A stretch of 64,000 nt of DNA from Marsupella aquatica (lineage: Eukaryota > Plantae > Marchantiophyta), in assembly GCA_973895155.1 (NCBI GenBank), contig OZ316894.1, forward strand, positions 14,275,680 to 14,339,679. The letters are read 5' to 3'. Under the pieces are notes generated by a model. The model was not told where the DNA came from and did no database searches. It saw nothing but the letters and a program-made list of their open reading frames with translations. Position 1 is the stretch's first letter, and each line of letters begins with the position of its first letter. Shown here one piece after another: positions 1-59,799 of this stretch. A program made the translations under genes and the position numbers.

Positions 1-1224
1 CTCATATATACTTCTGGAGACTTGCCACCCCCGTACCTACTCTGTGCCCCAAATTTTAACCCCCACCTAGATCCCAACCCACGTTTGGGCATGCCATCGT
101 TTGCTATGCCCATAACTTTCTAGTTAGGTGTCCGTAGGTAGAGTGCCTTAGCCCGTTGTGATGGGGCCAACCCATTGCTCATGCCTATGTCCTCAGAACC
201 CATCATCGCTTGGGATGCCCGAGCGGCCAAACCTGGGTCGGGCCGTATCTCGTGCCCCAAGCGTCCGTTGCACATGAAATAAACTCCATTAACCTTGGGC
301 CTAAGAGGAGCTCTCACTCAAGCCCTCAACACTCAAAGTTTATCCTGGGTCCGGACGGTTGACCTTGAGTCCGACCCTTTTCCATGACCTGACCAGCCCT
401 CAGATAGTCTAAGTCCTTATTGTGCATCACCAGCTTAGCGCTTTGCCTTTGCCAGTGCAATGCCCAATTGCCCACAAGAGTTGTGGAACTCGACTGCCTT
501 AGCTCCAGCATTGCTGACTTCAACACCAAGCTCCCTTATGGTCCAGGCCCGGATAGGCCATCCGAGGAGGACTTAGCATAGGGAGACTTGTGGGCAATGG
601 GGCGTGGAACTAGCAAAGGCAAGCCGCTAAATTGGTGACACACACTAAGGACTTAGACTAGCTGAGGGCTGGTTGGGTCAAGGTGAAAGAGGCCAGGCTC
701 AAGGTCAACCATCCGGACCCCCGGACGGACTTTGAGTGTTGAGGGCTTGAGTGATGGCTCCTCTTGGGCCCAAGGTTAATGGAGTTTATTTCATGTGCAA
801 CGGATGCTTGGGGCACGAGATACGACCCAACCCAGGTTTGGCCGCTCAAGCATCCCAAGCGACAATGGGTTTTGAGGACATAGGCATGAGCACTAGGTTG
901 GCCCAATCACAAGGCCAATGGAGTTGACTTCATGGGCAACTGACACTTGGGGTGTGAGTTATGGCCCAATCTGGGTTTGGCCGATCGAAGGGCCCAAGCG
1001 GCAATGAGATCTCAGGGCCTAAGCATGAGCACTAGGTTGGTCTGATCACAACGGGCTAAGGCACTCCACTTGCAGACGCCTAACTAGAAAGTTATGGGCA
1101 TTGCGAGTTCGTGGTGCGCCCAGACATGCGGGTTGGGGTCCAGGTGGGGGGCCAAAATTTGAGGACCAAAGTTTGGGGACAAAAGTTGGTCCAGGGGTGG
1201 CAAGTCTCCAAATGCATATATGAG
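1..1224. repeat. Long imperfect inverted repeat (arms ~1-478 and ~586-1224, right arm with ~140-bp extra segment), probably in the LTR/5' leader of the first Gypsy
   Basis: Segments pair as reverse complements. Examples: ctcatata at 1 with tatatgag at 1217-1224; cacatgaaataaactccattaaccttgggc (271-300) with gcccaaggttaatggagtttatttcatgtg (~768-797); tagtctaagtcctta (~405) with taaggacttagacta (~646). Confidence 0.85.
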
Positions 1225-5900: not shown

Positions 5901-6744
5901 GATGTTCTTGGCGGATTTTGATTTTGAAGTCTGTCACGTTCCTGGGAAGACAAACATGACAGTTGATGCGTTATCGCATAGGGACCATCACTGTGTCAAT
6001 GGGATCACAATGCTTGAATCCGAGTGGCCAAAGGTTCTGGCCAAGGCGTATGGAGATGACAAGTTAGCCAAGGAATGGCAAAGCAATGGGGGTAGCCAAG
6101 GCAAGGTAAGGCACGTTTCATTGGGGTTGGATATTGCGCATAATGTCCAGTTATGGGGATACAAGTAAAGGCGTGTGTACATCCTAGAGTCTCTAAGACT
6201 GGAGGTTCTGCAAAAGTACCACGACTTGACCTGGGGAAGGCATGGCGGACAAGCTGCTGTGTATCGCAGCATGGCGGACAAGCTGCTACGTATTGCAGCA
6301 TGTTGCAAGATGTGTGTTGGCCGGACATGAAGGCATCAGTTTTTTGCCACGTGCAAAGTTTCATGCCAAAAGAATTGAACGGTCTATAGGGAAAAATGAG
6401 AACTTATGCAACCCTTACCAGTAGCCGTGGCTCCATGGGAGTCCATTTCCATGGACTTCATTGTGGGGTTATCTGAGTCCCACGGTAGTAACTCCATCTT
6501 AACAATCGTGGATCGTTTTTCCAAAATGATGTATTTCTTGCCGACTACAAAAATGGTTTTGGCCCGAGAGGTTGTCGGTCTAGTGTTTGACAATGTCTTT
6601 TGACAATGGGGATTGTTGTTGCATATCCTATCCAACCGCAATACCAAGTTCATGGGCCACTTCTAGAGGGCGTTGTTCCGGTTATCCGGAACAGACCTTA
6701 CTAGGGGATCAGCGTATCATCATGAGACTGATGGCCAAATAGAA
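2918..6744 (+). pseudogene. Gypsy-1 gag-pol remnant
   Basis: Gag (YLKDYALTWY), knuckle CYTCGAMGHQSKDCP, protease ALVDIGATACF (~4000), RT ([44 protein letters not shown]), RNase H (TNASDYAIGACL), integrase (PWESISMDFIVGL, IVDRFSKM, SAYHHETDGQIE). Many stops and frameshifts. Confidence 0.92.
5781..6010 (+). repeat. 115-bp direct tandem duplication at the end of Gypsy-1 RNase H
   Basis: tggcagatgttcttggcggattttg...gggatcacaa occurs at 5781-5895 and again at 5896-6010 with a few transitions. Confidence 0.95.
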
Positions 6745-7523
6745 GGGGTATTTACAAAAGACAGGAACCAGGAAACAGTAACAAGAAATAGTTACAACAG
6801 GAGAATTGGAGGTAAAAACCGAAAACATCAAACCAAAAAAAGGATTCCAAACAATCAAAATTAAAGCCCATTAAGTCATTTTCATTAAAACCGTCTCATT
6901 CCGGAGGAAATATCCCGTCGGGTAGTCCGACCCAAATTTGCGATGATTACCAGCGTTGGGCGCTGGTATCAATGAAACGAATGGAAAGGTTGCAGGGTTT
7001 CATAGAAGAAGAAAAGAGTCAACAAAAATCCGAGAAGACAATAGCGGCTGAAAATGAGGCAATTCAAATCAACAGAGGCAGGGTCATACAACAACAAAAT
7101 CCGGATGTCGTTGCTAGCTTAAACCTCAAAATCCCCAAATCCATGTTTAACGCCATCGAAAGGAAAACCAGACATTGGAGATTGAGTCGATCCAAAATTC
7201 ATTTACTTCAAAATGGGCGGAAACATATCACCGAGATTACATGGGCGATGGAAAGCAATGAGTATAAGTAGCGCCCGGTGCTAGCTTAGGTAACGCCATG
7301 GAGAGGAAAATGGGTCTATCCAAAAAGCATTTCCTATCAAAATGGGCAAAAACATATTACCCAGATTACCAAATCCTAACAAAACATTAAGTACTGAAAA
7401 ACGGAGATGGAAAGCATGCAGCTTTAGCAGCGCTCGGCGCTAGCTTAAATATCGCTGCCTAGAAACCTAATCGCCGTAGGGTTGCACTCCAAAATAACCT
7501 AAGCGCCTGCGATTGGAACACCT

Positions 7524-8105
7524 TTAGCTCTGTGATTGACAATCATCATCGACTCCCGCCCTTGCCCGCTTGTAGTTTTTCTTGAATCCTAAACCCCTGA
7601 GCCGAATATAATTGGAAGAGGGAACTCGATGCTCAACATGAGCTTGGCCGGGGCCCGGAAAATTTGCATCAAGGAAGTCAACGCGCCCCAATCGCTCTTG
7701 CACCCGACGTTCAATTGGCTGTTGACCATCAACAGGAACGACTTGATGTAACGAGAACTGATCGTCAAATTCGCGTGGAGTGTGTCGGTTACCAATCCAT
7801 GGAATATTTCTCTCCCAAGGAATAATCGCCTCGTCATAAGGAAGAGAATTATGGTTCTGGAAAGTTGATGTCTCGGTCTCAGTGTCGACACGAACTGATT
7901 TGAAGGAGCTGAAGTGGCTCTCCACCGGTCGAACTTGGGAAGGACTGAAGAAGGCAAGCATCTCGTCCAACAACATTGGTTCCTTCCTCTCCATGTGGTC
8001 GCACCAAGCTTGACAACGTCCACACGCAGGTCGAAAACATCCACACCTTGCCTTAAGGTCCGCACCCAGCTCGACAACGTTCGCACCTTGCCCCAACGTT
8101 CTCAC
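7524..8105 (-). CDS. Hypothetical small ORF X inside M1 (true start uncertain)
   Basis: Uninterrupted 193-codon ORF inside M1, downstream of gene A and preceded by three palindromes (8397-8565). No recognisable domain; no homologue in the other, truncated copies. Confidence 0.35.
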   Translation of the reverse strand: MRTLGQGANVVELGADLKARCGCFRPACGRCQAWCDHMERKEPMLLDEMLAFFSPSQVRPVESHFSSFKSVRVDTETETSTFQNHNSLPYDEAIIPWERNIPWIGNRHTPREFDDQFSLHQVVPVDGQQPIERRVQERLGRVDFLDANFPGPGQAHVEHRVPSSNYIRLRGLGFKKNYKRARAGVDDDCQSQS

Positions 8106-8590
8106 CTTGCCCTAATGTCTGCACCTTTATCGACAACGTCCGCACCTTTATCGACCTTGTGTCTCCAAAAGGTTGACATAGTGACTACCAAAGGACGGTG
8201 ATCGGTGGACACCCGTAACATCCGAGCTTCAACGGGCAGAGGACCGTTGAGTAAACAGTCAAATCGCGACACGATTATTTTGAAATAGTCTCAACTTAAT
8301 TCCGTAACGACAATATACGGATGGCGACAGGATGGCGACAGAACGTATGAACGATATTATGATGTAAAGGTTCGAGGAAAAACGTGCACATTTGGGGAGC
8401 GCCCGACGCTACTAAAGGAAGAGACCAATTTAAACCTTTTATATAAGAAATACATGTATCTCGATAACAGGGCCCGACGCTACTGAAGACAACAAGTGGT
8501 TTTTAGATTTTATTATGAGCATATGAAATGAAATACATGTCTTTTCATAACAGCGCCCGACGCTAGTAAAAGCTGGAAAAGAAAATTACA

Positions 8591-11500
8591 TCAATTATAG
8601 GTTTCTGATTGAGATTCCGATCGAGAGTTGTGTGATCTATTGGTAGAGACTGCTTCGTCATCAACATACTTGCTCTTAGAAACGTCGTCTACATACGGGT
8701 TTCTAACAAAATTTCTGTCAACTCCTCTTCGAAGGCGGAGACCTTTGTTTTCCCAGCAAAGAGTCCTTTGACTATCCTCCTTTCTCACAGCGTTCTCAGC
8801 GTAAGACGGCAAAACAAATGGTTTCTCCGGTGTATCCATTTCAAAACTTGCAACTTTTCTTCTGAGTTGGAAGTGCTTTTTGGTATTCCATTCGGACCTG
8901 GGTAGATAACCAAGTAAGACAACCGATTGAAACATATAATCAATAGCACAAAATGCATGAAGGAGCTGGAAAAGAGAAAGAAGCTTACAAGTTTCAAAAC
9001 ATTACTCGGAAGAGTCATCGCTACCACTCTCGCCAGCAGATTGCTCCTTACCCCCCCATGAGTTGTCCCCCCGTCCACTTCATCAGTTGTCCCCCCACTT
9101 GACTCATCATCAGAGTCAAAATTAAGTACAGACCGGAGCTTGTCCCTCTTTTTCTTTTCCGGTGGTTGAATTGGGGGAGGCAAGGTTTCTACTTCCTTAG
9201 AAGAGAGTAGATTTAAGAACACCTTGGAACCAGTTTCAACAAAATCCTTCTGATTCTCCAGTCCAATTACAAACCTCCCAGAATAGTCTCCGACTACAAA
9301 AGAGCTACCCGAACCAACTGTCCAATCTATGAAAATGTCCCGAGGCCGAGTGATGAGCTCTATCACAGACTGCATGAATCCAACCGACAAACGGGCATTC
9401 CCTGCGAATTCCATCTCAGGTGTTGGATCTATATTGAGAGTACGTGGGAAGCCCAATTAAATTAGTGATGAAGGGATCTTCTGTAACAGACAGAGGTCTA
9501 AACCTCAAGTCCTTGGGTACTTTCCCTTTCTGAGATACTCGGCAAAAGACGTCTAGCCTGAGCGTGAATATCTGCGAGATAAACCAAGAATGATATGTCA
9601 TTCCATGCATTCATACACATCCTTGAGTGTAAAAACAGAGATCACGACTTGGAATTTACCTGCCAGTCAGTCTTCGGCGCGTACATAGGAACTGACATAA
9701 CAACATTGTGTGTGGAGATGCAATGAAACTTCTTCGATTCCTGACATGCGGATATAACCTGAGACATAGGATCGTACTCCCCATTATGCAAAACTGCTAG
9801 CATTCCATCATCTGATAAAAATGGGTCCATTCCACGAAAGAATGATGTTGCCAGTGTGTGGTCGGGGGTATTCCATTTCGGCAATTTTCTGTCTAGCAGC
9901 GATGGTTTCAGACCCGTAGGAAGGTAAATGAATCCTGCGTGTACTCCAAACGATCTTTCCTTCCCCCCACGGACAATTCCCTTGTCTCGATATCCCGACT
10001 TCATGAGGTCCTTTGCCCATTTCTCTACACCATTTACCCAGTCAGGCTTCTCCTCTTTGTTGAACGTTGTGTCATAGAATTCTGAGATGCTAGACTCAAC
10101 CATGCAATGCCTTGAAAGAGTGTTTTTGAGGTCACCAACTTCTCGTTGAACACCCGTTGCAGCCACACTTTCCTGAGCGGAGGATGATCCACCTTCAATT
10201 GCCCTTTTTCGCCTCTTTCTAGTACTGATCGCATCTACTGGAGCAATTGACTTCCCTTTCTCAACAGGTGTAAGTGGGATCAGATGGAGGCCCTGTATTG
10301 GCTTCAGATGCCTCTGGGGTGGCATCTATCTTTGTATCGCCATTGCCGATGGTGTCTGACTTTCTCCCTGCTCAAATGGAAGGCGATGTTAGATTTTGAG
10401 CGCATGGGAAATGCAAAGTATACTAACGCTCGGCGCTGGCCAAACTTTCTCCAAGAGATGGAAGCAAATATATATATTTGTGGAACAAATGGGACAAATG
10501 CAATCTAACATATATTGAAAGGCATAGCAGCGCTAGGCGCTAACCAAAGAACTACAAATTATACTTACATTTTGTCCCGGACCTTGTTGATTCGCTTGGG
10601 ACAGCAGTATCAGCTTTCCCTTTCGCACGAGGCTTCCGGCTTCGGTCAACTTGAACAACTGTGGTCTCACAGTTCATTTGCAATTCTGTTGTGGACTTAT
10701 CTACATCGTCCACTAGTCCCTGCTTCATGTCAGAAACAACATTGACTGGTATCTGGGACTTAGAGAGCTTGTGGAAAGCATCCTTTTCTCGGTGATCAAA
10801 GGGCGAGTCCCATCTGTCTGTATCTAGGTACCATGGATAGTGGGTTCTCTCCCATTCACTTAAAGGTCTCGCTGGGAAAATTCCCTCCGCGGGGTACACA
10901 GAGTACAAATCAGATAAATTGTCACCTTTTGATATTACTGTCCACTTCTGAAAAGCGGCGGGATATGCCCAGAAGTAATCAGGTCTAGTTACTTCCATGT
11001 GGATGTAAAATCGATAGAGGTACCTTTTTGCTCGCTTCTGGTTCTTGAAAGAGTAGTCCTCTTTGTCCGAATACTTCGAAGGCCACATTGTATTAAAAAA
11101 CTTACCCTTCACCAAGTCTCCGTATCTCTTGAAATCATTAGTAACTATATCGATGAGAGCTTCAAAAGATTCACATGCCCAGGCTTGCAAGCGATTCTCG
11201 GGAATGATTTGTTGGACCTCTCTCAAAGCACACTGTAACATCCCCACTGCAATCCCCTCTACATTGTTCCACGTAATCCAGGTATGACACCACTGTTTTA
11301 CTGGATCATCATTGACGCTGTTTGGATGGAAGAATTGCCTTCGGAGCTCAGGATTGCAATGGGCGACAAGCAAAGTACTCCTGAGCTTGGGGTCGAGTGC
11401 GGAAACAGCAGTAAAAAGCTTGGCTCGGTCCATCATACACAAGACGGTATCAGGTTTCTTCTCTCGCTTATTTCTCTCCGTCACAGCATACATTTCAGCG

Positions 11501-12864
11501 CACGTAGACAGAAAGTCCTCAAATTTTGGACTTAACAAAGGAGTGATTTTTGATGTTTTCACTGCCCACTCCTTGGTGGCCTCCTTCATCATTACGGCAT
11601 GTGTTGTGGAAACCTCCTCGGCCGACCAAGGGATACCTAGGGCCGCAGCGGACTCCATGTCAAGCTTGAACTGGTTAGAATATGATTTAATCTTATTCTC
11701 ACATAGAATATAGACAAGAGAATCTTGAGGCATCTTTTTTGTGTACCAAGATCCTTTCCGCGTCTTCAACCTGATCTACTCAAACTTCTTATAATTCGTA
11801 GGGTCGATGAGCTTACTATAGTACTCCAAGTCGTGAATCAAAATCCTCTTGATTTGATTTGCGTCAAGGATCCATGACGGTTCGACCACGGCTTGTCCAA
11901 GCCTGAAGGAAAAGAAAGCAATTAGAAAAACATTTAAGCAGCGTCGGGCGCTCGTAAAACAATTCCTCTCCAAGATATGCTATAAAGAAGAACTTACTGG
12001 TTCATGGTGTGCATCGCTGCTTCAATTTCAATCAGGGAACCCTTGTCCCCATTGAAGATAGTACAGAGCACTCGCGGGTGGTATTTCAGGTTTTCTGGAT
12101 TCTCCTTATTGACAAGCGTCCAGGAGTACAACCGATGGTTCCCGTCAAAAACTGAGAACGCCTTATCCTTCAGAACGAGAAAATCGGGGTCTGCCGCACA
12201 TTCTTCCTCAAACTTTTTGTTTTCGGATATCCATATTGGATCCCAAGTATCACGAATTTCCTGTGTGCAAGTGAGCGTCACACCCTCAGCGTCCGCCGGC
12301 TGAACATAAAACCTCATTCCTATCGACGAATTGTATCCCATACTATGAAAAGAGTCTTTCAACTTGTCAATGGAGGAGCTATCTTTCTGCAAAGTGCAGA
12401 CGACCTCCATGTGCACCAACCGACACAGCGGAATCCTAGGAGGCTCTTTGTTAAACCCTCAGAAATCCTTCCCAAAGAACATGACATGTTTTGAAATAAG
12501 GTCGGTCTCAGAGAACGAGACATCTCCAAATAGCAAATGTGTCAACATTCTCAATCTTTTTTCGCGTCGGCTTCGGAAATGAATTACTTGAGACGGGAAC
12601 AAGCGATGTGCTTGACCTCGTCACTCGACGTGTATACACCAAACCTGAAAATGAAGACTCAGAAGACTTGCAATAGCCACGGTCACAATCCCCAACAACA
12701 CTATACCCCCTCGATGAGGAGGGGACTGCATCCATCGTCTCCCGCGACGAGTGTTGTACGAATGGTCGTACACTACAATTCTCACGATCGAGTACTGAAT
12801 CCCCGTACCAAATTAACGGTTGATGGAGTATTATACCCGATTGATCAGTGCTATCTCCCTCCAT
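8591..12864 (-). pseudogene. Gene A (M1): ParB/Srx-like N-terminal domain, central helical region, beta-class amino-DNA-methyltransferase-like domain, acidic/basic tail; spliced
   Basis: IPLCRLVH…LKDSF…GY…VFDGNHRLYSW (12132-12146); GFIYLPTGL (9912-9926); FLSDDGMLAVLH; VIELITRPRDIFIDWTVGSGSSF…GRFVIGLEN (9301-9327). GT-AG introns at about 11905-11997, 10370-10568 and 9572-9659, at the same positions in M2 and M4. Confidence 0.75.
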
Positions 12865-12990
12865 GTAATCTATTTAAGAGATGTTACGATGAAATTGGGT
12901 ATTACTTATCGTTAAAACAAAGCGACAATCTAAGAACTATGACAAATATTAATGCAAAATCCGCTAAACTGTTTTCGTGATGATCACGCT

Positions 12991-13023
12991 AACCGTAGTT
13001 ACCGTTAAATATTACCGTTGACC
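12991..13023 (-). promoter_or_regulatory. Paired AACGG (MSA/MYB-like) boxes upstream of gene A in M1
   Basis: Minus strand reads GGTCAACGGTAATATTTAACGGTAACTACGGTT. Equivalent pairs occur at 55477-55501 and 63546-63570. Confidence 0.45.
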
Positions 13024-13051
13024 AAACTACTAAAACTTGGTAATGCATTGC

Positions 13052-13441
13052 TAGCGTCGGGCGCTAGTAAAATTTTACCCACATTGGTCATAAAGTTTAA
13101 TGTGTTCAATAGATAGCGCCCGACGCTACCCATTCTCTGGTCTATTCAAGGTTACGTTTTTGGTCCCAGTTTATGTGAAATTTTTTGAAAATGAAGAACT
13201 TTAGGACGTAGGAAGTTTAATTTTGTTCACATTTGGCCCTTAAATATGGTGTACCAATACTAGCGCCCAACGCTAGTACATATATCCCTGAATAGTGCTT
13301 AAATTTGTACGATATTGCATTTTTAGATACAAAAAGTAGACTTATTGGTGTCCACTGTTATGTTAGCGCCCGGCGCTAGTCTAGTGTGTGACTGAATTAA
13401 ATCCTTATAAATCCTGGAATTTTTGGTAGTGCCAGGCGCTG
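13052..13441. repeat. Cluster of five TAGCG-N5-CGCTA palindromes between the divergent genes of M1
   Basis: Copies at 13052, 13114, 13261, 13364 (perfect TAGCGCCCGGCGCTA) and 13427. Confidence 0.9.
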
Positions 13442-13673
13442 CTGAAATCATGTGATTTATCTTGGCCTATATGTGTTCATTTTGACACAATAAATATCCC
13501 TGACACCCGCACTTACCGGGGCAAAAAGGACAAACTCTACATTTATGATTTCAACGGACACAATTCTATGTCGTATTGAAACGAATTTTATAACGGTCAA
13601 TCGTCTTCACGCATTAGTATAAGCATTCCACTTGGGGGGAATTTGCTTTGTTGATTCCTTCATTTTCTCCACA

Positions 13674-16600
13674 ATGTCTCGCTCAATTGTAATTACACGT
13701 GCTTGTACTGGAGACGTCGTCAAGATCCCCGTGCAAGTTTCTGATGCTTACAAGCAAGTTAGTGAAACCTACCTTTGCGGGAGATTTGATTTGAGGATGA
13801 ATGATATTGAGTCCATTCTCCCATAGGAATCGATGAGTGGAGAACTTCAACGGGCTGCGGCATTCAATGTAGATGAGGGAGTACGCTTTTGGCATATGAA
13901 TATCGGGCTTAGTTACACGCTTAATGTCAGACGTGTCGCTCCGGAAACAGCAGTTGGGAACATTCCTGTTGTTGTTGTTGACATATTTGACAGTGAAGAT
14001 GGTGATGTTGCACCCACTCCTCCGTCGCAGTACAAAGTTCCGGTTTCCGCTTTTGTTAAGGATGAGCCGGTGGCTACCTCCGGAGTTGGTCATAAAGTCT
14101 ACCGGAGGAGTGCGATGGACGCCTTACTCAAGGCCATGGGACATAGTGAACTATCAAGATTTATCTCGGCAGGGGACTTCCGGCATAAGCAAGTTCCTTG
14201 TTTTCCAGACAAGTACAACGGAAATGTTGTATTTGAACTGCCTCCCATTGAGGGAACGCTCTCCAAGGGATCTAGACTTCGTGACATGGACCGTGCCAAA
14301 GATTGTTACATTTGGACCAAAAATTTTCCGACAACTGCGAACGTGCATCCAAAGAAACATTGGGAATTTGGTAAGGTTACGTGTACCGGGTTCATCGAGT
14401 GCAGGAACAAGTCCTGTGAGTACTTTCAACGAAAGAAGAGATGCAATGCAAAGGCCTGGCATGGTGCTCCTAAACTCGGTGGCCAGCACGGGGTGGGTTC
14501 GTTGATTGAAGAGGGTGGTGTAGTCTGTCACTATTGTGCGCAGATTCCTTTCTGTGTGAAGTCTCTGCCCTGCTCGCTTGTTTTATATGTACCCTCAAGT
14601 CCTTCTTGATACAGAGACCTCTAGTCACATGTCTCGGCTTGCAGTTCATAGAGGTGAGCATAACCATCCAAGTAGGAAATTTTTTTCGAGGAGCGCTGAG
14701 AAGATAGCTGAGGATTTGATAAGAAAAAATCATGAAGCCAATCCTCCAGCAAAACCGGCTGGTATTTTGAATTCTGCAACCGGTTTGCTCGTGAAAGCTC
14801 TATGCGAAAACGTTGACGACATAGTAGATATTGAAGAAATGGAGATTTGGAAGTCTCTCATGGTATTGTCTACCCCCCAGAAATTTGCATCGCTTTGTCG
14901 AAGAGTTCGAATGGACCAGGCTGGTCGTGGTGAGTTAGATTTCCTAGCTTAGATGCAAAGGTCAAATAACATTTCTTTCCTCCAAAGGTACCTCCTACCG
15001 GGTCAGGGTTGTGTAGCAGATAGGCCCCATATATTCAAAATGATAGTCAACGGTCATGGATCTGGTGTAGATCTTCTCCGACAGATGCAACCCGGCGGAA
15101 GATTGGAAGGAGCTTGGGTGAGTTTTGATGTGATGAAGCGAGTGACAACCGGCTGGTTTACTTTTAGTGTACACGTTTACGATCACAACTTCCGAGCTCT
15201 TTGTACAATCTTCACATGCGAACTAAAAGCTGAAGACACGGAGTCCTCTAAGAAAGCGTGGAGAATTATGATTGAGGTTTGTAAGGAAAATGGGTTACAG
15301 GACGTTGTCATTCAAGGTTTTATGGCTGACAATGCTCAGGCTGGATGGATCGCCGTTTGCAATGTCTTTTTTGGAGGGCACCCAGACCCTAAACGTGAAC
15401 GCTCTGATGCATTTCACTTTTACCAGTCTTTCCATTGACACTCTACAGAAGGAGTTTTGGAGGGTAAGCAACCAGAACATCGGTAACTATGGGAGAAACT
15501 TCGGAATGCTCCAATGTTCGTTGTGGCGTATTGAGTTTCGAGGGAGATCGTGTTGTGGTGGCAAGCGGGAAACTGTCCCAGGAAAGCTGATGATGTTGCA
15601 GAGTTGGATATCTTGGTGGGTTGTTTGATGGCATCAGTGGGGGAATTTCATTCGTGTGGTAAGTTTTCCTTATGCGTTTATTAGTCAAACCTCAGTGTGT
15701 TTATACTAGCGTCAGGCGTTGCTTTGATTTCCACTCAGAAAACCTTCAAACATTACAGAAAACGAAACTTGTACCGATAAACCTTCTTTTATTATCTCCT
15801 ACTCATTGCTAGCACCTGGCACTACTTATACAAAAGAAGTAAATTTTGTCTGGACGGGTTTTATTGCAGAGCAAAAGCGCAGAAGAAGGTGCACTCATTC
15901 CAAATTGTACCGGGTCAGAGTCAAGGCACGCCTCCATGAAAGCATGGGCTACCAAAAAAATGGTGGGTCTCTTTGGAGCATGCAAAGTTGATCAAAATCG
16001 AGCTCTGTCACAAGTTGCGGGTTATAGCGCATATCGGAAGGGACTCAATAGAGGGAAGGGGCCAACTATCTGGGAATTAGCCTTCCGATCCGCAGACCAA
16101 TCTGGTTCACCCAAGTTATTTGAAGAAGCAACCAACATGATTCTTTCCAACGCTGCTGATTTGGATCTGGATAGGAGCTCTCCTCTGAATGGAGATATTG
16201 TCGCAAAGTCGGTTAAGAGGAAGGGACTCGCAACTGGGATTGTCTCGCCACAAGACTCCCATCGGCATGACACCATTCTCATCACTACACCAAATACTCA
16301 AGGGTTCAAATGGAAGAATCTCAACAACACTGCCTTCACTTCCTTTCCCGCAAATGTAATAGATCCCATAGTCGACCTCGGCGGGAGCGACACTTCAACG
16401 AATGGAAGTGATTCCCTCGCGAACACCCTTGAAGCCAGAGGAACAGAAACATCATCGCAACCCCCACTCAGTGCTCCGGCTGTTCTTCAACGTTTGCCGA
16501 CAAAGTCAACTCCTTTGGAAATGGACGTTCCTAGAGGGACCTAGCATTTTCGGCGGACGGTCAAATATGGGGCAGGGCCTTAGTGCAATGGGGCTTTGCA

Positions 16601-17390
16601 TGGAAATTCTAAGAGGGATGAGTGTCGAAATCGTGTCAAAAAAGTCGGGTTCCATTCGGCAGCAGGTGTTGTTGGCATTGTTGTCAGCGGACATTGCATT
16701 TTCAGAGGCACACCCATTGCAAAAATGATATGGTTCTGCCCAAACAAAACATGCCACAAGAGCCGCCCGCGTCGTGGTGTTGAACGCCTTCCTCTTGTGC
16801 CGGATATCTTGCCAGTTGTGAAAGGGACCAACCTGTCACCTGCCAAGGTAGAGTTCCTTGAAGCACAAGGAGTCTTGATGGTCCAAACAGCTGCGACGTC
16901 TCGCGCTGCACCTGTTCCATTCGGCTTGAGAATTAATGTAAACGCATTTCCTGAAATAATCAATTTCGCCGACCCCAATGTACGCCTTCGGACCAGGAAT
17001 GGGAGAAACTCCAGACCTCGATCAAATCTAACTTTGGCTCACAGTACATGAATGGAGTCAGCTCGGAAAGAAGCTATGACTCTGGATGGCGAGTGGGATG
17101 TGGGTATTGGAATTGCATTTGGGAAGCAATTCAAAATCTGGACCCACGAGAACCTTCGATCCCCAAACACGTACTTTGTCCAAATTTGCGTCTTCCCAAC
17201 CTGTCCCTGTGAGGATTTCTTCCATAGTCATTCTCGCGGCAAGCCATATATGCCTTGTAAACATTTGTATTGGGTGTTTATAAATGTCTTCAAGTTTCAT
17301 GTAGAGGAGTCTACCCTATGTAGCCAGCCCATTTTCACAGTTGCGGAAGTCAGACTCGTGCTGGATAGGCAGAACGGGAATGGTTTGTAG
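13674..17390 (+). pseudogene. Gene B (M1): Mutator-like DDE transposase with GCM-like Cys/His domain and C-terminal SWIM finger; one intron 15659-15869
   Basis: FELPP…CTGFIECRNKSC…CHYC…HRGEHNHP; WVSFD (D 15127), GFMADN (D 15328), SDAFH (DxxH 15406-15417), TGSESRH (E 15918); SWIM CPCEDF…PCKH (17202-17264). Several in-frame stops and frameshifts. Confidence 0.85.
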
Positions 17391-18093
17391 AGTAACACGA
17401 CATTCTAGAGACTATCGTTTTTCGTAACGGATACTATGGTTTTTGTCTGTAGTCAACGGATATTACACTTGTTTTTTTCTTGCTTTTGGTTAGCACCTGG
17501 CGCTGGTTCCAAAACATTAATATTGTTAAATTTTGAATTTTATCTGGTTATTGTCATGTTGTTGTCCCTTAACTTCAACTTTTGTCCCTGTTTAAGCTTT
17601 GTTAGCGCCTGGCGCTAGTTTTCACACTCTGTCTAGATCCAATATTGAAAATGCTAGAACCATTCTTCGCCGATCGGTTGTTTAAGCCTATAACTGGATT
17701 TAGGGTGGGTCCCACCATAAATTACTCCATCCCTGCATGGATTTTATTTTTCCTTCTCGTAGGCCGAATTGCGCTTTCTAAACTGGACTGTTCTGAAATG
17801 ATGCTGTATCTAAATAGTAGGGATATTCAATGACGACATTATTCATGTAGAACAGATGGACACTCGGTTTGGAACCTCTCTTTGCAGTTGTGACCACACC
17901 CTTGGCTTATATCTGACCGCCTCACATTTGGCACTAACAAACATTCAACTTGATGATGTGGTGGAAATGACGTTAATTTTTGGGGAACTTAGCCAAAAAG
18001 TACATTTTTACCATAAGACTTTCCTGTTACCAGTTAAGAGTTACCTGATAACAGGAATTTTATTACCTGTTTCCTGTCACCGCTGTTATACCC

Positions 18094-18233
18094 AAATAGA
18101 ATGGATGAATGGTATCGTGGAGGACTACTTGCATCATTTTGTGACGGCCAATCAAAAGGATTGGGCAAAGCACTTAACAATGGCCGAGTTTAGGTATAAC
18201 TTGACCAAGCATTCGGCGACAAGATTTGCACCG
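18094..18233 (+). pseudogene. Continuation of the Gypsy-1 integrase between M1 and M2
   Basis: IEWMNGIVEDYLHHFVTANQKDWAKHLTMAEFRYNLTKHSATRFAP follows directly from …DGQIE at 6744. Confidence 0.9.
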
Positions 18234-18702
18234 AGGCTTTACATCGTGCCAGGAAACAGGAGATTTTTTAACTGATACGAGCAAAAACTTTCCTTGTATC
18301 AGGAAAGTTTTACTGTTATGAGCAATGTTTTTACTCACATCAGGAAAAACATTCATGGAATTGTCATCCTCCTTACTGTCGTGAGCAAAACCAAACAAAA
18401 AAACATTAAAAAATGCCATGAAAAGTGGAGTGCCAAGTCTCTCCAACCACTTATAAGAGTGTTCAAAAAGAAATTTGTATAAAAAACGGGGCACTACCCT
18501 AACCTCAAAAGGCACATTTTGAGCAAAATATGTAAATTATACTAGCGCCAGGCACTACCAATGATCCAACCCTATTTTACAAAACCAAACATTGTCTAAT
18601 ACACTCATTCTAAATAAGTTTCTCTATATGATAATGCCGTTGGAAAATGACAAAGTACTGACCAATTTAACGTAAACTACATAATAGGCACCTATTTAAA
18701 TA

Positions 18703-21700
18703 CTACCCTAAACTTTGTCGTTCTAACAAGAGACGTATTTCTCCAACGGTGAGTATAGGTTGACTCGACAATGTTGATTCTCGTAGGTCCAGTTTGAAAA
18801 CATTCTTATCAATCCAATACAGATGTTTGCAAGGCAAGAAGGGTTTTTGGTGGGCATGACAACGATAGAAATCTTTGCAAGAACAGCACGGGACGCAGCA
18901 AATCTGAACCCAATAGGCAATGACAGAGTGGTGACCAATGTGTGTTTGGATGCAAAATTGTTTGCCCCATCCATTTCCTGTTGCAACATCCCTGGAATAG
19001 ATTATTTTCATTTCTTCTTTCTCAACTGCCTCAATCTTCTTATAGTGCGACTTAGTTAGATGCATTCTCTATAGGCACGTCCTCCCATTTTGAGATAAAC
19101 AGCAAATTGTCAACTGAAGTAGATTGATCCTTTCTGGGAAAACATTGACATCGATTCGGAGATCTAGTCCACTTGGTGCATTTCTTACACGATCACCTTC
19201 ACCTCCGATCGATATTCCGTTGTCCTTCAGAAACTCAACCTCTGCAGCAAAAAGATTTGTAGTCAATGCAACGGGCAAGTGATCACAAGGAGGCGGAACA
19301 TTCACCACACCTTTTCAAGGAAACTGTTGTAACAAACATTATTCGGATAGAACCAGATCAATTCTGGATGTGGTTCCCCTCTGAAAAGTTGCGCTGCCTG
19401 AACTGCAATACCAACAACTCTGTTTGACATCCGGTAGCCTACTTTCTTCAATCGATTTCTACATTCGTCATGATCTCCATGTCCGCCAAGCGATCCATTG
19501 CAAACTGGGCCAGCACCATGCTTCAAAGTTCTCCTAATATGCCATGCTCCAGAAGGAATATTGGACTCCAACACGGACGGGGTTACTTCTTCAATAACAT
19601 GTACTAGGGGCGTGACTGGAGTTGCAGATGACCTCATCTCCATCGGAGGAGGAGGTGTCCGCTCTTCAAGACTATCTAAAACATCGCTCTCTGAAATATT
19701 GACAACTACACTCTCTTGGAAACCTGGTTCAGAAGGAATCGCAAAGAATTTCGTTCTATTGAGATTTCTTTGCTTCAAACCTTGGGTGTTTGGGGTCGTA
19801 ATGAGGATAGTGTCATGCCTGTGGAAGTCTTGCGCAAAGACGTTTCCAGTAATGCCCCTTCCTCTTTACTGATCATGTATTACATCCCCGTTCAAAGGGG
19901 TATTCCTTTCCAAATCGAATTCAGCCGCATTGGAAAGGAAAAGGTTCGAAGCTTCTTCAAACAACCACGGGGAACCCGCTAGATCTGCAGAGCGGAAAGC
20001 CAGCTCAAACACTATTGGACCATTCCCTCTGTTCAATCCTCTCTTGTAAGCCATATAGGCTGCAATTTGAGAGATCGCTTTGTTCTGGTTGGTTTCACAC
20101 CCTTCAAAGACTCCAACCTTCTTCTTCGTTTTCCAGGCAATCATCAATGCATGAGACGACTTGGATCCACCACAAATTGGAATCATTGCCGCTTCTTCTA
20201 CACTCTTGCTCTGCAGAATCCATCAGACAAGGTTAGAAATAGGAGTTGAATAGCGCCAGGCGCTAGCCAATGAACATATAGAAATAATAGCACATGTGAT
20301 CACTTTGAACCTATATGAGTAGTGCCAGGCGCTAACCAATGATTGTTTTGGAATACTTACCAATCAAATAAAATTTCCCCATTGGCGCCATCGAACAACC
20401 CACCAAGAAATCCAACCTTGCAACATTTGTAATTTACCAGGATAATAATTTTTTGCCCTCCACCAAGAATCAATTTCTCTAGAAATACAATATGCCTCGA
20501 TAAATGACTTTGCATTCCGCAACCTATCCCATAGGGCACGATGTTCACCTTGCTTTCCCTCATGAATGCCTTCAACTGAGTGTCTTCAAAATGACTGGAA
20601 GAAGTAAAATGCATCTGATTGCTCATGTTTGGGATCAGGAAGTCCCCCAAAGAACACATTCTTGATAGCATTCCAACCAGCTTGAGCATTGTCCGCCATA
20701 AAACCATGAATGTGGACATCGTGAAGACTATTCTCGTCAGCCACCTCCAACATTAAACGCCAAGCCCTCTCAAGGGATTTTGTATCTTCTGCTCGCAACT
20801 TGCAAGTGAATATCGTGCAAAGTGCACGATAGTTATGGTCATAAACATGCACACTAAACGTAAGCCAATCCTTTAACATTTGGTGCATCACATTGAAACT
20901 TACCCACGCACCCTCAAGAGGCCCTCCGGGCCTCATCTTTCAAAGAAGATCCAGACCGCAGCCTTCACCCTTAGTGGACATCTTGAAAATGTGTGCACTC
21001 TCATCTCGAGACCCTTGTCTTGGCAACAAGAACCTTTGCAGAAATGGGAATGCAATGTTCTTCTGCATGCTTACCAGAAATTCCAATTCACCTCTTCCTT
21101 TCTGGTCTTGACAGATACTTCTGAGAAGGTTCACAAATTTTTGAGGCGTTGAGATGACTTGAAGAGATTCAAAAATCTCTGTCTCTTCTATTGGGATCAT
21201 GTCTTGAACTGATGACTCACACATTGCCTTAAAGAGAGACCCGGTGACGGTGTTCTTCATACCCAATGTAGTTGCACACGGATTCAAAGTCAAACCTTGT
21301 TCCATGTGCATCTTTGCCACTTTCTCCGCCTCTCTTGAAAAAACTTGCTTGCTTGGATGGTTATGATGTCCGATGTGAATGGCAAGCCGTGACATATGCT
21401 TAGCAGACTCGACATCAACTTTGGAAGACGCGTACATGTAGAACATCATGGCTGGATAGGACTCAACACAAAATGGGTGCTCCCAACAATAATGATAGAC
21501 AATCCCACCCTCGGGAATGAGTTGCCTGACTACGTGCGGTCCAGAAATCTTAGGAACTCTTGCCCAAAACTCACATGAATTGTTACGACATTCCAAGGAA
21601 CCCGTGCAAAAGACTTTCCCAAAATCCCACACCTTTTTTGGGAGAACATTTGCGGAAGTCATGACAATCCGAGTCCAATAGTAGCAGTCTTTGCTCCAAT

Positions 21701-22292
21701 CCATGTCCCAAAGGCGTTCACCTTTTGAGCAAACTCCAACAACTGGAGGCAGTTCAAAAACAATATTCCCATTGTACGTGCCACACAAGCTTGATTCTTG
21801 CTCAAATCGGTAATCATTCCTTCGCATGAATCTAGAGATCTCACTCTGGCCTTTTGATTGTAGAATCGTATCAAGAGCACTCCTCCGGTACACAACTGAA
21901 TCGGTCATCCGCCCATCGACCGTCTCCACTTTCACGTTGTTTTGAGGAAGACGAAGCTTTGCCAAATCTTCATCATTGCTACTATCTGAAAGGTCAATCA
22001 AATCGACTTTCAGCTTCCCCTTTGAGGAGGATGGTACCTCAAATTTTCCCAAACTAACGATGTCATACTTCACCCCACCGCACAACCTCCAATACCGAAC
22101 TCCTTCAATGAAATAAACATCAACCAGCACTTCCTCTCCCGAGATAACTATTCTCTGTATGCTTTCCCTAGGAATTCCAAACCTGGTGGCAAGATATTCC
22201 TCAAAAATTTCATCACTTTTCTTAGGAGCAGTGAGAAGGATTGTCACAAGGTCGCCAAGCGGACAGCGAGAAATTACAATTCGTGAATCCAT
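18703..22292 (-). pseudogene. Gene B (M2) transposase; intron ~20211-20360
   Basis: MDSRIVISR…FELPP…HIGHHNHP…GFMADNAQAGW…SDAFY…CSCKDF…PCKHLYW; collinear with M1 gene B. Confidence 0.85.
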
Positions 22293-22488
22293 TGGAAATG
22301 GCAAACAGAAGTGTGAGGCCGCCTCAATTCATTTGTGCTCAACAAAACTGTTACGAATACGACAAAGTGACCTATCAGCAATGATTGCTTGTCATTTTCT
22401 AATGGAATTACACATGTCAGTAAAATCATACCTATCGAGAAAAGCTTATTGATCCATCTTTAAACATAAATTTCAAGGCACACAAATA

Positions 22489-23055
22489 ATAGCGCCTCGC
22501 GCTAAGTAACTGAGATGAAAACTTCAAGCTAATATGCACATAGTAATATATATTTTGTCACGCATCATCTCAAATGACACAATTGTCCAAGTTCCCTTTG
22601 CTAGCGCCAGGCGCTAGCAAATATGTTTCAAGCATATTTGGTCCATAACGGTAACTCCCAATGCTAGCGCCAGGCTCTAATATGTTTCAAGCATATCTGG
22701 TCCATAACAGTAACTCCCAATGCTAGCGCCAGGCGCAAACTAAGGACTACTCAATAATTAACGGTAACTTGAATGGTTATCCGGTTAAAGTTTATTAGCG
22801 CCCGACGCTAGTAAACTATTCAAAAAGAAATGTTATTTTACCAAAGGAATATTATGTTCCGTGTTATATAGATGAGAGGATAATGAGACCATAACGACAT
22901 CTCCCTATGCTAGCGCCAGGCGCTAACTAAACTTTGACTCAATTGTTAAAGGTTCTATATTACTATGATAAACTCCAATTTCTTGAAGGATTATCATGTT
23001 AATGATAGATTGATGGAACCGTCACAACGGACGCCAATGATAGCGCCTGGCGCTA
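22489..23055. repeat. Cluster of seven palindromes in the M2 inter-gene region, including a ~60-bp tandem unit (about 22599-22740)
   Basis: Copies near 22489, 22602, 22665, 22724, 22796, 22911 and 23041, mostly TAGCGCCAGGCGCTA. Confidence 0.9.
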
Positions 23056-26000
23056 TCTAATAACGACTCGCTCTTCAACAGTAACTTCAACTGATATTTT
23101 TGTCGATTCAAGTATAATATTTCTGGAGGTAGTAGGTGAATGGTAACTTAAACGGATACCTTTTTATGCATTGTGAGGTCTACTGGTCAGTCCTAGATTT
23201 AATCAACAGTGCATTTTGCTCCAAGTGTCCAATAGCCCCCGCCTCACATGCCGCTAGAGGTCCAATCGTCGTACATTTAGGGTACTTTGCTTCCTTTGGA
23301 ATTTTTCCTATTGAGGCATATTCTTCTCATTTGCGTTGGTGTCGTTGAGGGCTGCATGTAAGGAGAATCCGCATGATTAAGCGTACAAACTCCCAAACTA
23401 ACTCCCGTACGAAACAAAATTGAACGGGAAAAATCTCCATATCGTAGTTGGGAGAGTATATCGGAATGGGATCTGGGTCGCCAAACCATTCCCAGTCTTA
23501 AGAGTCATCGTATTCCAGTTGTGTTTCGAGTCGAAGAGTAACTCATTCCACAGCGCAGTATCCTCTCAGTCAAGTTGAGCTTCCATGTCCAAAACCAAGG
23601 CGTTTGGAAATGGAACATGTTGGAGAGTTTGCCGTTCAGAATGTCAAAGACATTGGGAAATTGGTGGTTGATGTCATTGAAAAGCACGTGATGTCGTTTG
23701 GAACTGATGCGAATGGGTTACCAAAGGAGCCTTCGAGAATTCCTTTATGTTGTCTCGTTCATATGGAGGTTGTACACACTCTTCAGAGGAACAGTCGATT
23801 GAGAAGCTGAAGGACTCGTTTCGGACATCTAGTTACAATTCATCCATTGACATGAGTTTTTTTGTTCAGCCATCCAACACTGAAGGTGATCCGTAGATTT
23901 GTATAGATGAAATTTGGAGCACTTGGGATCCTATTTGGATCATGGAGAACCAGTTGTTTGAAGCGAAATGTGAATCAAACCCCGCTTTCCACGTCCTCAA
24001 GGACAAAATGTTCTATGTTTTTGATGGAAATCATTGGTTGTTTTCGTGGACTCAAGTCACAAACGAGAGTCCAGAGAATCCTAAGTATCATCCTTGCGTG
24101 CAATGCACAATTTTCAAAGGAGACAAGGCATCAATCATCGAGATTGAGGCAGCGATGCATTGTTAACCAGTGAGTTTTTTTTCACCACTGACTTGTCTTC
24201 CCAAATTTGATTGTTTCCCTCAACAATTTCTCCCTTATTTCAGGTTGTATTGTTAGGTTAGCGCCAGGCGCTATTTCTAATGTCTTGAATTTCACAGGAC
24301 GGGACAGGCAGTGGTAGAGTCTTCTTGGATTTTGGATGCGGACAAAATCAGGAGGATTTTGGCTCATGATCTCGAGTACTACAAACCCATAATTGATGAG
24401 GCAAATTATGCAAAATTCAAGAAGACAAGGAAAGGAACCTGAAAGGGTTTGTGGTTTACAAAGAAGATGCCGATGGAGGCGTTGGTCTACATCTTGTGTG
24501 AAAACAAGATCAAATTGTACTCACAACAATTTCAGGTGATGAAGAACTAGGCGAGCAGTTCCGGCGCACCATGGTCGATCGAAGAGACGAATCTTTGTCA
24601 CAATCAGATGATGAAGGAAGCCACTAAGGAGTGGACCGTGAAAACTCCGAAGCTCACTTCCTTGCTAAGCCCAGAGTTTGAAGATTTCATGGACACTTGC
24701 GCTGAAATGTATTGTCTTATTGATCAACTCAAACGTGAAAAGGTCCTTGAAGCTGTATTCTGCACCATGGATAGAGCTCGCTTGTTCACTGCCAATTCGG
24801 CATTAGATCCAAAATTGCGAAGTACATTGCTTGTTGCGCATTGTACTCCCGAGTTAAGGAAATAGTTTTTCCAACTGCTCGGAGTATCAGACGACCCCGT
24901 GAAGCAGTGGTGCCATACCTGGCATGTTTGGAACACGATTGAGGGGATAGCAACTGCTCTCCTCAAGGCATGTTTGAAGGAGGCTATGGGTTCATGCACC
25001 GAACAACGTCTTACAACACGCGGCGGAGAATTGATTTCCTTTGAGAAGTTGAAGGCTTTGATTTTAGATGATTTTAGAAAGTACGGGGATTCCGTAAGGG
25101 CCAAGTTTTTCAACACTATTTGGGAATCCAAGTACACTAACAAGGAGGAATTGAGTGAAGTGAACCGCAAGAGAGCCAAGAGATATTTGTATTGATATTA
25201 TGTGAAAATGGAGAGGAGTGACCCAACCTATTTCTGGGCTTATCCTAGTGCCTTCCAGAAATGGGCCGTTGTGAATTTGAGGTCCGAAGCGTCTGGAGAC
25301 TTTCTTGGGTACACCATGTACCCACTAGAGGGCAAGTTTCCCCCAAGGAAAATGGCAAAGTGGGAGGTTTTGCATTGTCCGTGGTATCTTGACACAGACA
25401 AGTGGAATTCACCTTTTGATGAGACAAAGAAAGATGCTTTTCACAAGTTATCGAAGAGTTTGGAGCCCATAAACATTTGTCAGAGATGAAGCAGGGAATC
25501 GATGCAGAGATTGATCTCTCGGCGATAGAGCTCGAGCGGATTTGTGAGACGCAAGTCGTCCAAGTTGCAAGGAGCCAAAAACCAAGAGCAAAACCCAAGC
25601 AAGAAACAACCCCAAGTGGATCTCAAAAAGAGACCAAAAAAAGTGAGTCCCTATTTTTGTAGCTTCAAATCTCCGTACTTTTCAATCTTCTATTTGGCTA
25701 GCGCCAGGCGCTGTTATTAATATAACTATTTCTCTAGCAGGATCTCAAAAATCAGATGCGGGGTTGGTGTTGGGTAATGCTATGACTGCAACTCCAGAGC
25801 CTTCTCGTGACAACAATCTTGGGAAGGACGAGGATCCATCAGAGGGGTCGGAGACCCCGGAGGATATGAGTGCTCTGCCAATGGACGCCACAAGCACTAG
25901 GAAGAAGAAGAAACATCGCGTTTCTACTTCCGGTGGGTCTCACAGGGAAACGCTTGCGGCAACTGGTTTACAGAGGAATGTGGGGGGCTTCAAGGGGAAT

Positions 26001-26879
26001 AAATCCAGGCACACATTCGTGGACTCTACCTTGGCAGAGTTCTACGATAGCGTGTTTCAGAGGGAAGAGAAGCCATCTTGGGTTGGTCAGGTAGAGGCAT
26101 GGGGAAAGAATCTTGTGAAATTGGGTTCTCGGTCAAAGGGGGTTATCAGAGGCGGCAAAGTTAGGGCATTTGGTGTCAATGCAGGATTTCTATATTTGCC
26201 TACTGGATTGAGGCCATCACTTTTGGACAAAAAAGTGCCAAAATGGAATGTGCAAGACCACTCTCTTCCTGGGGCTTTCTTTAGCGCAATGGACCCTTTC
26301 CTTCGGACGACAGACTTCTGGCTATTCTTCACACTGAAGAGTATGACCAGATTTTGGAAGTGATATCTGCATGCCAGTAGTCGCAAAAGTTTGACTGTAT
26401 TGCATCATATACAGTTGTCATGGGCTTTCCTATGTACAAACCTAAGTCTAACATTCAGGTAATGAATGACGTCCATTTTGGCCAGCGCCAGGCGCTAATC
26501 TTGTATATCGATATGCATCTCCATATTTTTGTTGCACGACCTTACTATTCTATTGTTTTGTAGATCTTCACGCTGCGGTTGGATATATTCGGTCGGGTTT
26601 TGAGAAAATCAACAATACCGAAAGATCCCAAATTCTGTCCATTGTCACCTTCCGAAGATCCTTCAATTACAAATCTGATAGGACTTCCGTCTTTAAAGTT
26701 GGATCCAATGCTAGAACTTGTGGCTTGTGGAAACGGGCGGCTCACAATTGGTTTTATGCAGTCTGTTATAGAGATCATCTTCTGTCCAGGGGATATTGTG
26801 ATCGACTGGACCTGTTGCTCAGGAAGTTCATTTGTGGTGGGAGACTATTGTGGTAGATTTGTTGTTGGGATGGAAGGGC

Positions 26880-27222
26880 TGTTAGGTATTTACTCAAGGT
26901 CTAGGATTACGATATGTAACCATAGTTAGACTAACCGTAATCAAAGACGTGGTTAGGTTAACTAGAATGCACACTATATGCCAAACGGTGTTTGCTTGGA
27001 TAAGTGAAACTTAGGCTCATTGTTATGTAGCCACTTGAGAAATGAGGAGAGCTTATATTGTGGAGACTTGGTATGGCTGACGGGCTTAGAATTCAGTAAA
27101 GCTCTCTTGTATATTCCCGTGGACGTAGCCTCAAGGAGGTGAACCATGTATCTCTTGTGTCGACTACTTGCACGTTGGATGTGTCATGTGCTTACCGTTG
27201 TGATTGTCGTCTATGCTCTACA
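26880..27222 (+). repeat. Copia-1 5' LTR
   Basis: TGTTAGG…CTCTACA; about 21 differences from the 3' LTR by hand count. Confidence 0.97.
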
Positions 27223-32860: not shown

Positions 32861-33077
32861 TTTTGTAATTGCGTCACAAGTAAGGGTTTTTTCTTAACAT
32901 TCGCTATAAATTACTAATATATGCTCTTCTTCACTCCTAGTAGTAGGCTATGGCTTAGTTCTGGTTTGCTCTAGTTAGAGAGGGGAAACCATGTTGGTTT
33001 TTGTCCAGAACTTCCCGTTGAGGAATCATATAGGTTAGCAGTATTACCCTCCCCTAGACTAGAGTCAAGGGGGAGAT

Positions 33078-33420
33078 TGTTAGGTATTTACTCAAGGTCT
33101 AGGGTTACGACATATAACCATAGTTAGACTAACCGTAGTTGGAGACGTGGTTAGGTTAACTAGGATGCACACTATATGCCAAGCGGTGTTTGCTTGGATA
33201 AGTGGAACTTAGGCTCTTTGTTATGCAGCCACTTGAGAGATGAGGAGAGCTTACATTGTGGAGACTTGGTATGGCCGACGGGCTTAGAATTCAATAAAGC
33301 TCTCTTGTGTGTTCCCGTGGATGTAGCCTCAAGGAGGTGAACCACGTATCTCTTGTGTCGACTACTTGCACGTTGGATGTGTCATGTGCTTACCGTTGCG
33401 ATTGTCGTCTATGCTCTACA
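33078..33420 (+). repeat. Copia-1 3' LTR
   Basis: Direct repeat of 26880-27222, preceded by the PPT and followed by TSD AGGGC. Confidence 0.97.
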
Positions 33421-40202: not shown

Positions 40203-40559
40203 CCAACTACTTTCCTAAGCTCCTAATGATGGCTAAACTAGTTTAGCTAAGCTAAATTCTATCTAATGAGCTCAATTTAGGAAAAGGGAGAGAAAACGGT
40301 TTAAGAGATGTTGAATCAAAATTCAACTTAAAACGCCAGAGTGATCCTTCAGATGAAAAACAGTTTATTGGTTAAACTGATCTTCTTATGTCCTTCACTC
40401 CTTCATCTTTTCTAAGTGACTTTATTCTGTCACTTAAAATGCTTCAAAAGATTTGAAAAATTTAGGTTTAATACTCCTTTATAATACTTCCACAAAAAGG
40501 CTTTCCACATAATCCCCTCCTTAAATGTGAAGTGACCCCGCGAACAGTAAGTGTCAAAA

Positions 40560-59658: not shown

Positions 59659-59799
59659 CCAGACTTTAAAACAATAGTTTTTGGATAGAGATATTGGCTA
59701 TTTTACAAAATAGCGCTTGGCGCTATTGTGAGCACATGTAATATTGATGGGTGTTTATAAAGTGAGACCGACTATCCAGATTTTTTTTTGACTATACTT

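Follow-up and report, generated by a model that had tools for sequence, protein, structure and literature searches.

Accessory genes that combine ParB-like and DNA methyltransferase domains have been described on algal transposons. In the Ectocarpus element Sola1-1_Ec32, a gene for a 1104-aa ParB-like plus N4/N6 methyltransferase protein lies opposite the transposase gene, and self-binding was proposed; the paper cites green and red algal cases as well (PMC12477816). Red-algal Plavaka elements carry accessory genes of the PF01555 and ParB types together with arrays of inverted repeats, and homologs of these genes are reported on Chondrus Mutator, Zisupton and Fanzor elements (10.1101/2025.02.11.637652). 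For the algal cargo, binding and modification of the element have been proposed without a test.

The locus studied here, M1, lies in a 64-kb stretch of DNA (the window). It resembles Sola1-1_Ec32 as a DNA transposon in which a single ParB-like plus N4/N6 methyltransferase gene of about 1100 aa (gene A) is opposite the transposase gene (gene B). The ParB part is weak here, and the likeness is one of described domain layout. In contrast with M1, Sola1-1_Ec32 has a Sola transposase, a 4-bp target-site duplication (TSD), a 282-bp terminal inverted repeat and a brown-algal host. The available text on it describes neither a binding motif nor the loss of catalytic motif seen in the gene A family (PMC12477816). 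Plavaka PAG2/PAG3 also bring a PF01555 methylase and ParB-like domains as cargo, with inverted repeats as proposed ParB sites and Mutator elements among the hosts. The Plavaka domains, however, are on separate genes (methylase plus SET; ParB plus 2OG oxygenase), and the repeats are tandem arrays beside PAG3 rather than palindromes dispersed in introns.

Like VANDAL elements with VANC, M1 pairs a MULE-like transposon and an accessory protein with short motifs that are enriched in its own non-coding DNA and tandemly duplicated (PMC5735166). The VANC site is described as a 9-bp non-palindromic motif in same-orientation arrays, unlike the 15-bp palindrome of M1, and anti-silencing was demonstrated for VANC whereas it is presumed for A (PMC5735166). 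The DUF3723 cargo of Starships is likewise an accessory gene conserved in mobile elements of eukaryotes, although Starships are tyrosine-recombinase elements of fungi (10.1101/2021.12.13.472469). DUF3723 is the nearest named ESM Atlas cluster to the N-terminus of A (0.95). To our knowledge, VANC has no ParB or methyltransferase domain and the Starship DUF3723 cargo no methyltransferase domain.

Beta-class amino-methyltransferase folds are found in eukaryotes in MpDN4MT1 of the liverwort Marchantia (10.1101/2021.02.12.428880) and in rotifer N4CMT (PMC8885841). Unlike A, these are described as host genes with an intact SPPY, shown activity and no ParB domain. Phage fusions such as L083 have the order of A, ParB and then a beta-class methyltransferase, but L083 has an intact DPPY, lacks the 340-aa helical insert, and its ParB domain gave no alignment to that of A.

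The original prediction of a candidate new system without a described family fails because the Sola1-1_Ec32 gene, of the same architecture, and the red-algal Plavaka/Mutator cargo had already been reported (PMC12477816; 10.1101/2025.02.11.637652). What is new is the MULE-like host with its relation to land plants, together with the degenerate active site and a clean candidate site for binding. No bryophyte MULE with gene A or the palindrome was found in the literature searched, which lay outside Repbase, Dfam and subscription journals. The gene A family would extend ParB-methyltransferase cargo to a clade of MULE-like elements that is related to liverwort sequences, and its degenerate motif suggests that enzyme activity is dispensable in this family.

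The element M1 and its copies in the window

The features of M1 are listed below; gene and domain assignments are predicted.

6737-6744, no strand: left TSD, AAATAGAA
6745-18093, no strand: M1, complete but broken MULE-like copy in a Gypsy integrase, delimited by the TSD and contig joins
6745-6780, plus strand: left terminus, short degenerate inverted repeat (GGGGTAT...GACAGGAA)
7269-17617, no strand: 17 palindromes, all non-coding, starting at 7269, 7428, 8397, 8468, 8551, 10424, 10528, 11939, 13052, 13114, 13261, 13364, 13427, 15707, 15810, 17491 and 17603
8591-8898, minus strand: gene A exon 5 (predicted), C-terminal domain of about 100 aa, 67% identical in M4
9006-9571, minus strand: gene A exon 4, frameshifted, encoding the half of the methyltransferase fold that binds SAM, with DWTVGSG as motif I
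9660-10367, minus strand: gene A exon 3, encoding a basic patch (RKRRKR) and the methyltransferase fold's catalytic half, with YLPT as motif IV
10569-11902, minus strand: gene A exon 2, conserved all-helical domain of about 340 aa and no known fold, then a linker; one stop
11998-12864, minus strand: gene A exon 1, frameshifted and with an approximate start, encoding a ParB/DUF3723-like domain that contains DGNHR
12867-13675, no strand: divergent intergenic region with 5 palindromes (13052, 13114, 13261, 13364, 13427)
13676-15659, plus strand: gene B exon 1, broken and with an approximate start, encoding the N-terminal domain rich in Cys and His, the first two of the catalytic Asp residues, and D(2)H
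15871-17393, plus strand: gene B exon 2, broken, with the catalytic Glu in GSESRH and a SWIM-type CxC...CKH at the C-terminus
18060-18093, minus strand: right terminus (GGGTATAAC...GACAGGAAAC on the minus strand)
18094-18101, no strand: right TSD, AAATAGAA

The stretch from 6745 to 18093 is confirmed as one broken copy of a multi-copy DNA transposon. The bounded element of the original prediction, with a TSD and GGG...CCC ends, was borne out by AAATAGAA on both sides, by the flanking Gypsy integrase, which is in frame once M1 is excised in silico, and by contig ends. The termini are short and degenerate (left GGGGTATTTAC.. versus right GGGTATAAC..). Some contigs from public runs join across M1, and 30 of 30 bins of the region were covered in all four runs; the whole unit is therefore a multi-copy repeat with empty sites. 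In each of the four runs, contigs end at 18093 and then enter unlike flanks (8, 6, 4 and 1 contigs), which fixes the right end of M1, indicates that other insertion sites exist and sets the TSD at 8 bp. A TSD of 9-10 bp, allowed by the M1 locus alone, is excluded by these ends. M1 is dead, with stops and frameshifts in both genes.

Past the 3' end of gene A, at 7450-8330, both strands of M1 contain open frames, and a short imperfect repeat is present at 8010-8150. This segment is covered by contigs of related runs, and no counterpart was found in the other window copies or the metagenome loci.

Genes A and B recur in three further copies, with the same divergent layout and 40-75% amino-acid identity:

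18234-33700, minus strand: M2, a diverged copy in inverted orientation that has both B and A and is interrupted by a Copia element (26880-33421)
49434-59658, minus strand: M4, diverged inverted copy, with its terminus at 49434 within a Copia RT and most of A exon 2 missing
59700-64000, minus strand: M5, truncated B, intergenic region with 8 palindromes, and the start of A at the window edge

The predicted recurrence of the layout thus held as to the head-to-head arrangement of A and B in M1, M2, M4 and M5; among these four, M1 alone has a TSD on either side. The far end of M2 was not found in the window. All window copies have stops or frameshifts. A third, low-complexity broken frame lies between B and A on the plus strand in both M4 (54340-54780) and M5 (62340-62771), with a shared AYKPSWWED end; it was not found in M1 or M2.

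Genes A and B

Gene B has one predicted intron, with GT/AG at homologous positions across copies. In M1 it lies opposite the five-exon predicted gene A, in agreement with the proposed pairing of a transposase with a divergently transcribed spliced gene. A profile of the B core yielded 46 relatives, of which the named ones are from Calypogeia fissa and Riccia sorocarpa. Conserved in their alignment are the N-terminal domain rich in Cys and His, an Asp that follows a beta strand, FMAD and C/DxxH, and invariant Cys/His residues precede the catalytic core. D..D, CLFH/DAFH and ESxH motifs were seen by eye in the window copies, and the CxC...CKH finger pattern is present in M1, M2 and M4. This combination of D..D, C/D(2)H, ESxH and CxC...CKH is presumably the MULE transposase pattern.

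Pfam MULE or SWIM domains were not matched in the 26 of 46 B homologs scanned or in the window pieces (rows on A and B pieces with E above 0.01 being taken as chance), and a profile search of PDB sequences with B gave no match. The 8-bp TSD of M1 falls within the MULE range of 8-11 bp (PMC6446971), and the terminal inverted repeats expected of Mutator elements are present in a short degenerate form only. The assignment of B to the MULE transposases is thus favored by motifs and TSD and lacks a Pfam match. On the motif pattern and TSD length the transposon is termed MULE-like. A Sola or CACTA identity is ruled out by TSD length and termini. A midpoint-rooted FastTree of the B core, in which a single locus stood for each long cluster of metagenome loci and eight short loci were added, joins the four window copies to the liverwort proteins with support of 1.0.

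Gene A comprises five predicted exons with about 1250 codons, and its four introns have GT/AG at homologous positions across copies. Its dN is 0.21-0.35 with saturated dS, and constraint on it equals that on the transposase core. Against M2 and M4, pN is 0.18-0.28 and pS 0.77-0.89, similar to the B core, for codons taken from tblastn segments and hence biased to conserved parts. Purifying selection equal to that on the B core rules out Pack-MULE cargo, and the view of gene A as a selected core gene of the transposon, already put forward in the original prediction, is supported by these substitution patterns. An exhaustive search with exon 2 yielded 91 relatives; word-based searches with exons 2 and 3 gave no long homologs. 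Protein P0094 of Riccia, full-length at 1207 aa, matches A from the N-terminal domain through the methyltransferase.

The C-terminal domain of A is, as judged from profiles and a model, a beta-class N4/N6 methyltransferase fold. It matches PF01555 under the Pfam cut-off and M1.HpyAVI by profile (E 6e-6). The top structural matches of a low-confidence model of the C-half (pLDDT 44) were CcrM, M.BceJIV and M1.HpyAVI (E 2e-5 to 1e-3). The order is the permuted beta-class one, with the catalytic half before the SAM-binding half, and the SAM-binding motif I is kept (DWTVGSG, DFAGGWG).

Motif IV is altered. In a global profile alignment, Riccia DLPTG falls on phage DLPYG with a probability of 98.5%. 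YLPTG is present in all three window copies that have exon 3; elsewhere the motif reads DLPT (Riccia P0094), SVGT (Calypogeia), and DVPS and DGPN (two metagenome-locus homologs). The form (D/N/S)PP(Y/F/W) was found in no A homolog examined, and the base-stacking aromatic was absent from all nine (the three window copies, P0094, P0095, P0069, P0051, L076 and L077). The window copies also lack the Asp/Asn/Ser, while Riccia retains Asp. In rotifer N4CMT, the change of SPPY to APPA abolishes activity (PMC8885841). Since the aromatic is missing and this mutation kills the rotifer enzyme, canonical catalysis is unlikely, and A is probably inactive as a canonical methyltransferase. The predicted fold is under selection despite the altered motif.

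The N-terminus of A, with DGNHR, is weakly ParB-like. In the ESM Atlas the ParB_N cluster (0.92, 11% of members) follows that of DUF3723. PHROG ParB-like matches were weak (E 0.004 and 0.13, in two of six ParB-bearing queries), as was a DGQHR domain match (E 0.008, in one of the six). A model of the 901-aa N-half had a pLDDT of 67, with the middle domain above 90. Structure searches with it gave nothing significant and no ParB or HTH match; DndBCDE-DndI at rank 3 (E 1.2) and Noc at rank 42 are at noise level. A profile search of PDB sequences with the ParB alignment of A found no match. Of the predicted ParB plus methyltransferase protein, the beta-class fold stood, while its ParB-like part is suggested weakly by profiles and has no structural match.

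Linkage of A to B was examined in metagenome B loci (the best 80 of 424 matches; 62 distinct). Among these 80, profiles detected ParB-like genes at three distinct loci, divergent upstream of B in L037 and L077 and downstream in L035. In L077 the gene is followed on its strand by a methyltransferase half, the architecture of A, divergent from a distant B. Of the distinct loci among these best 80 of 424, 17 extend over 5 kb upstream of B, and 2 of the 17 have an A-like gene there. They were detected by profiles only, and tblastn of A proteins against the 80 loci gave no match. Loci without A are weak evidence, as the copies are degraded and from another clade; the metagenome loci do not establish that A is universal beside B. 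The Riccia A and B locus tags examined were not adjacent, being at best 38 apart. A second methyltransferase-like half (DGPN) was seen downstream of B and on the same strand in L076 (10804-11172, plus) and L077 (14210-14578, plus), perhaps from a neighboring element.

The palindrome and its candidate readers

The 15-bp palindrome TAGCGCCnGGCGCTA occurs at 47 sites with up to 2 mismatches, whereas none of 30 dinucleotide shuffles had any, the pattern being derived from the same 64-kb window in which it was counted. With up to 3 mismatches, all 52 sites are in non-coding DNA of the elements (36 intergenic or terminal, 16 intronic), with none in 22.5 kb of exon (limits predicted) or in 28.7 kb outside the elements. 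It is present in 11 of 14 introns. The notion of many non-coding palindromes behaving like a cis site is upheld by this distribution. In M1, the sites nearest the termini are about 500 bp inside, and sites are not concentrated at the ends.

Among 68 changes in the palindromes, 66 are one-sided and none is compensatory, and the 1-bp center is fixed. The flanks are no more complementary than shuffled ones and form no extended stem; a purine two bases beyond each arm is conserved and the intervening base is free. The palindrome is conserved although synonymous sites are saturated. One-sided changes without compensation fit a dimeric protein site rather than a hairpin, a role which was rejected. 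C>T/G>A accounts for 43 of the 68 changes, an excess expected from 5mC methylation of the palindromes, at the least once the copies were dead. Tandem duplication enlarged two clusters (22593-22734 and 61708-61857). The palindrome is absent from all 80 metagenome loci (the best 80 of 424 B matches) and is thus taken as clade-specific. Other short motifs are repeated at distant B loci: ATGTTTCAA in L038 (14 times), GTCAAnTTGAC in L056 (5), TTTTGTAAG in L064 (9) and AAGTACCCA in L035 (6).

The favored reading, put forward tentatively, is that A reads the palindrome and protects the element against host silencing without catalysis. The protein would dimerize via its ParB-like domain and recognize the two-fold symmetric site, probably via the helical middle domain. 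The dead methyltransferase fold would act as a SAM/base-binding or protein-interaction module. Occupancy at introns and the divergent promoter would keep the element transcribable, as VANC does for VANDAL, and would shield it from host silencing without DNA methylation. In favor of this reading are the equal constraint on A and the B core, the confinement of the palindromes to element non-coding DNA with one-sided changes, the VANC-like tandem growth of two clusters, the methyltransferase fold with its altered motif IV, and the divergent A-like and ParB-like genes of L077 and L037. It is opposed by the C>T/G>A excess, the lack of an HTH or ParB match for the N-half model, the 2 of 17 distant loci with an upstream A-like gene, the absence of the palindrome from the 80 metagenome loci, the non-adjacent Riccia tags, the SVGT of the Calypogeia homolog, and the fact that a transposase can itself be the sequence-specific activator (10.64898/2026.08.24.746577).

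Somewhat unlikely is that the Cys/His-rich domain at the transposase's N-terminus, or a host factor, binds the palindromes and that A has a role at other places, such as that of a MURB-like partner or of a ParB-type clamp pairing the degenerate ends. The invariant Cys/His residues ahead of the B core would suit such a reader, and the AtMu1 transposase alone is reported to activate cognate copies (10.64898/2026.08.24.746577). MURB binds the N-terminus of MURA (PMC12973397), the ends of M1 are short and degenerate, and many distant B loci, among the best 80 of 424 matches, have no detected A. This reading is opposed by the location of the palindromes in introns and the intergenic region rather than at the ends, and by the recurrence of ParB with inverted repeats on unrelated transposons (10.1101/2025.02.11.637652).

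An unlikely version of the reading in which A binds the palindrome is a rebuilt parS/ParB-like system, in which A would clamp at intronic palindromes and spread, its dead or non-canonical methyltransferase fold barring host 5mC. If this clamp reading is true, the palindrome would give the ParB-methyltransferase transposon accessory proteins their first defined cognate site.

Because the candidate site is sharp, the proposal that such proteins bind and modify their own element becomes testable, in Marchantia or in vitro. If that proposal is true, land plants would have, in addition to VANC, a second and independently built transposon anti-silencing system, which might also serve for site-directed epigenome editing.

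That A is an active, non-canonical N4-cytosine/N6-adenine methyltransferase, marking its own element at the palindromes and blocking or overriding host 5mC, is a doubtful, quite improbable reading. It would account for purifying selection on the whole beta-class fold with motif I and for the Asp retained in Riccia. Active 4mC enzymes are reported in Marchantia, where doubly methylated 4,5mC was not detected (10.1101/2021.02.12.428880), and in rotifers (PMC8885841), and such a reading was proposed for the algal proteins (PMC12477816). Against it are the missing aromatic in every homolog, the further loss of Asp/Asn/Ser in the window copies and the inactive APPA mutant of N4CMT (PMC8885841). With motif IV being YLPT or DLPT in place of (D/N/S)PP(Y/F/W), the earlier suggestion that A marks the element is doubtful, since the catalytic motif is degenerate.

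Palindromes acting as RNA hairpins or cruciforms, or left neutrally by internal duplication without a protein partner, are very improbable: the sites are self-complementary, many changes preserve a G.U pair on one strand and two clusters are tandem duplicates, but compensatory changes and an extended stem are lacking, and the sites are conserved despite saturated synonymous sites and occur in 11 of 14 short introns.

Remnants and neighboring repeats

A remnant of about 300 bp at 40706-41013 retains the two terminal motifs, is flanked by a 9-bp repeat that is almost perfect, and is likely a non-autonomous derivative. The right end of a further copy lies at 46736-47651, with one palindrome and a SWIM fragment 81% identical to M1; it was cut by a Copia element, into which M4 inserted later. 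The element ends at 6745, 18234, 46736 and 49434 are all within LTR-retrotransposon sequence, two of them no more than 140 bp apart in one integrase, for which target bias or local hopping is possible.

Near-complete Copia elements are present at 26880-33421 and 34398-40203, with LTR pairs 94% and 99% identical. The first part of the window (1-1224) is GC-rich (54%), with a long inverted repeat centered near 535 and 910. Element DNA has a CpG o/e of 0.61-0.94, above that of the neighboring retrotransposons (0.31-0.67), a comparison confounded by age and composition.
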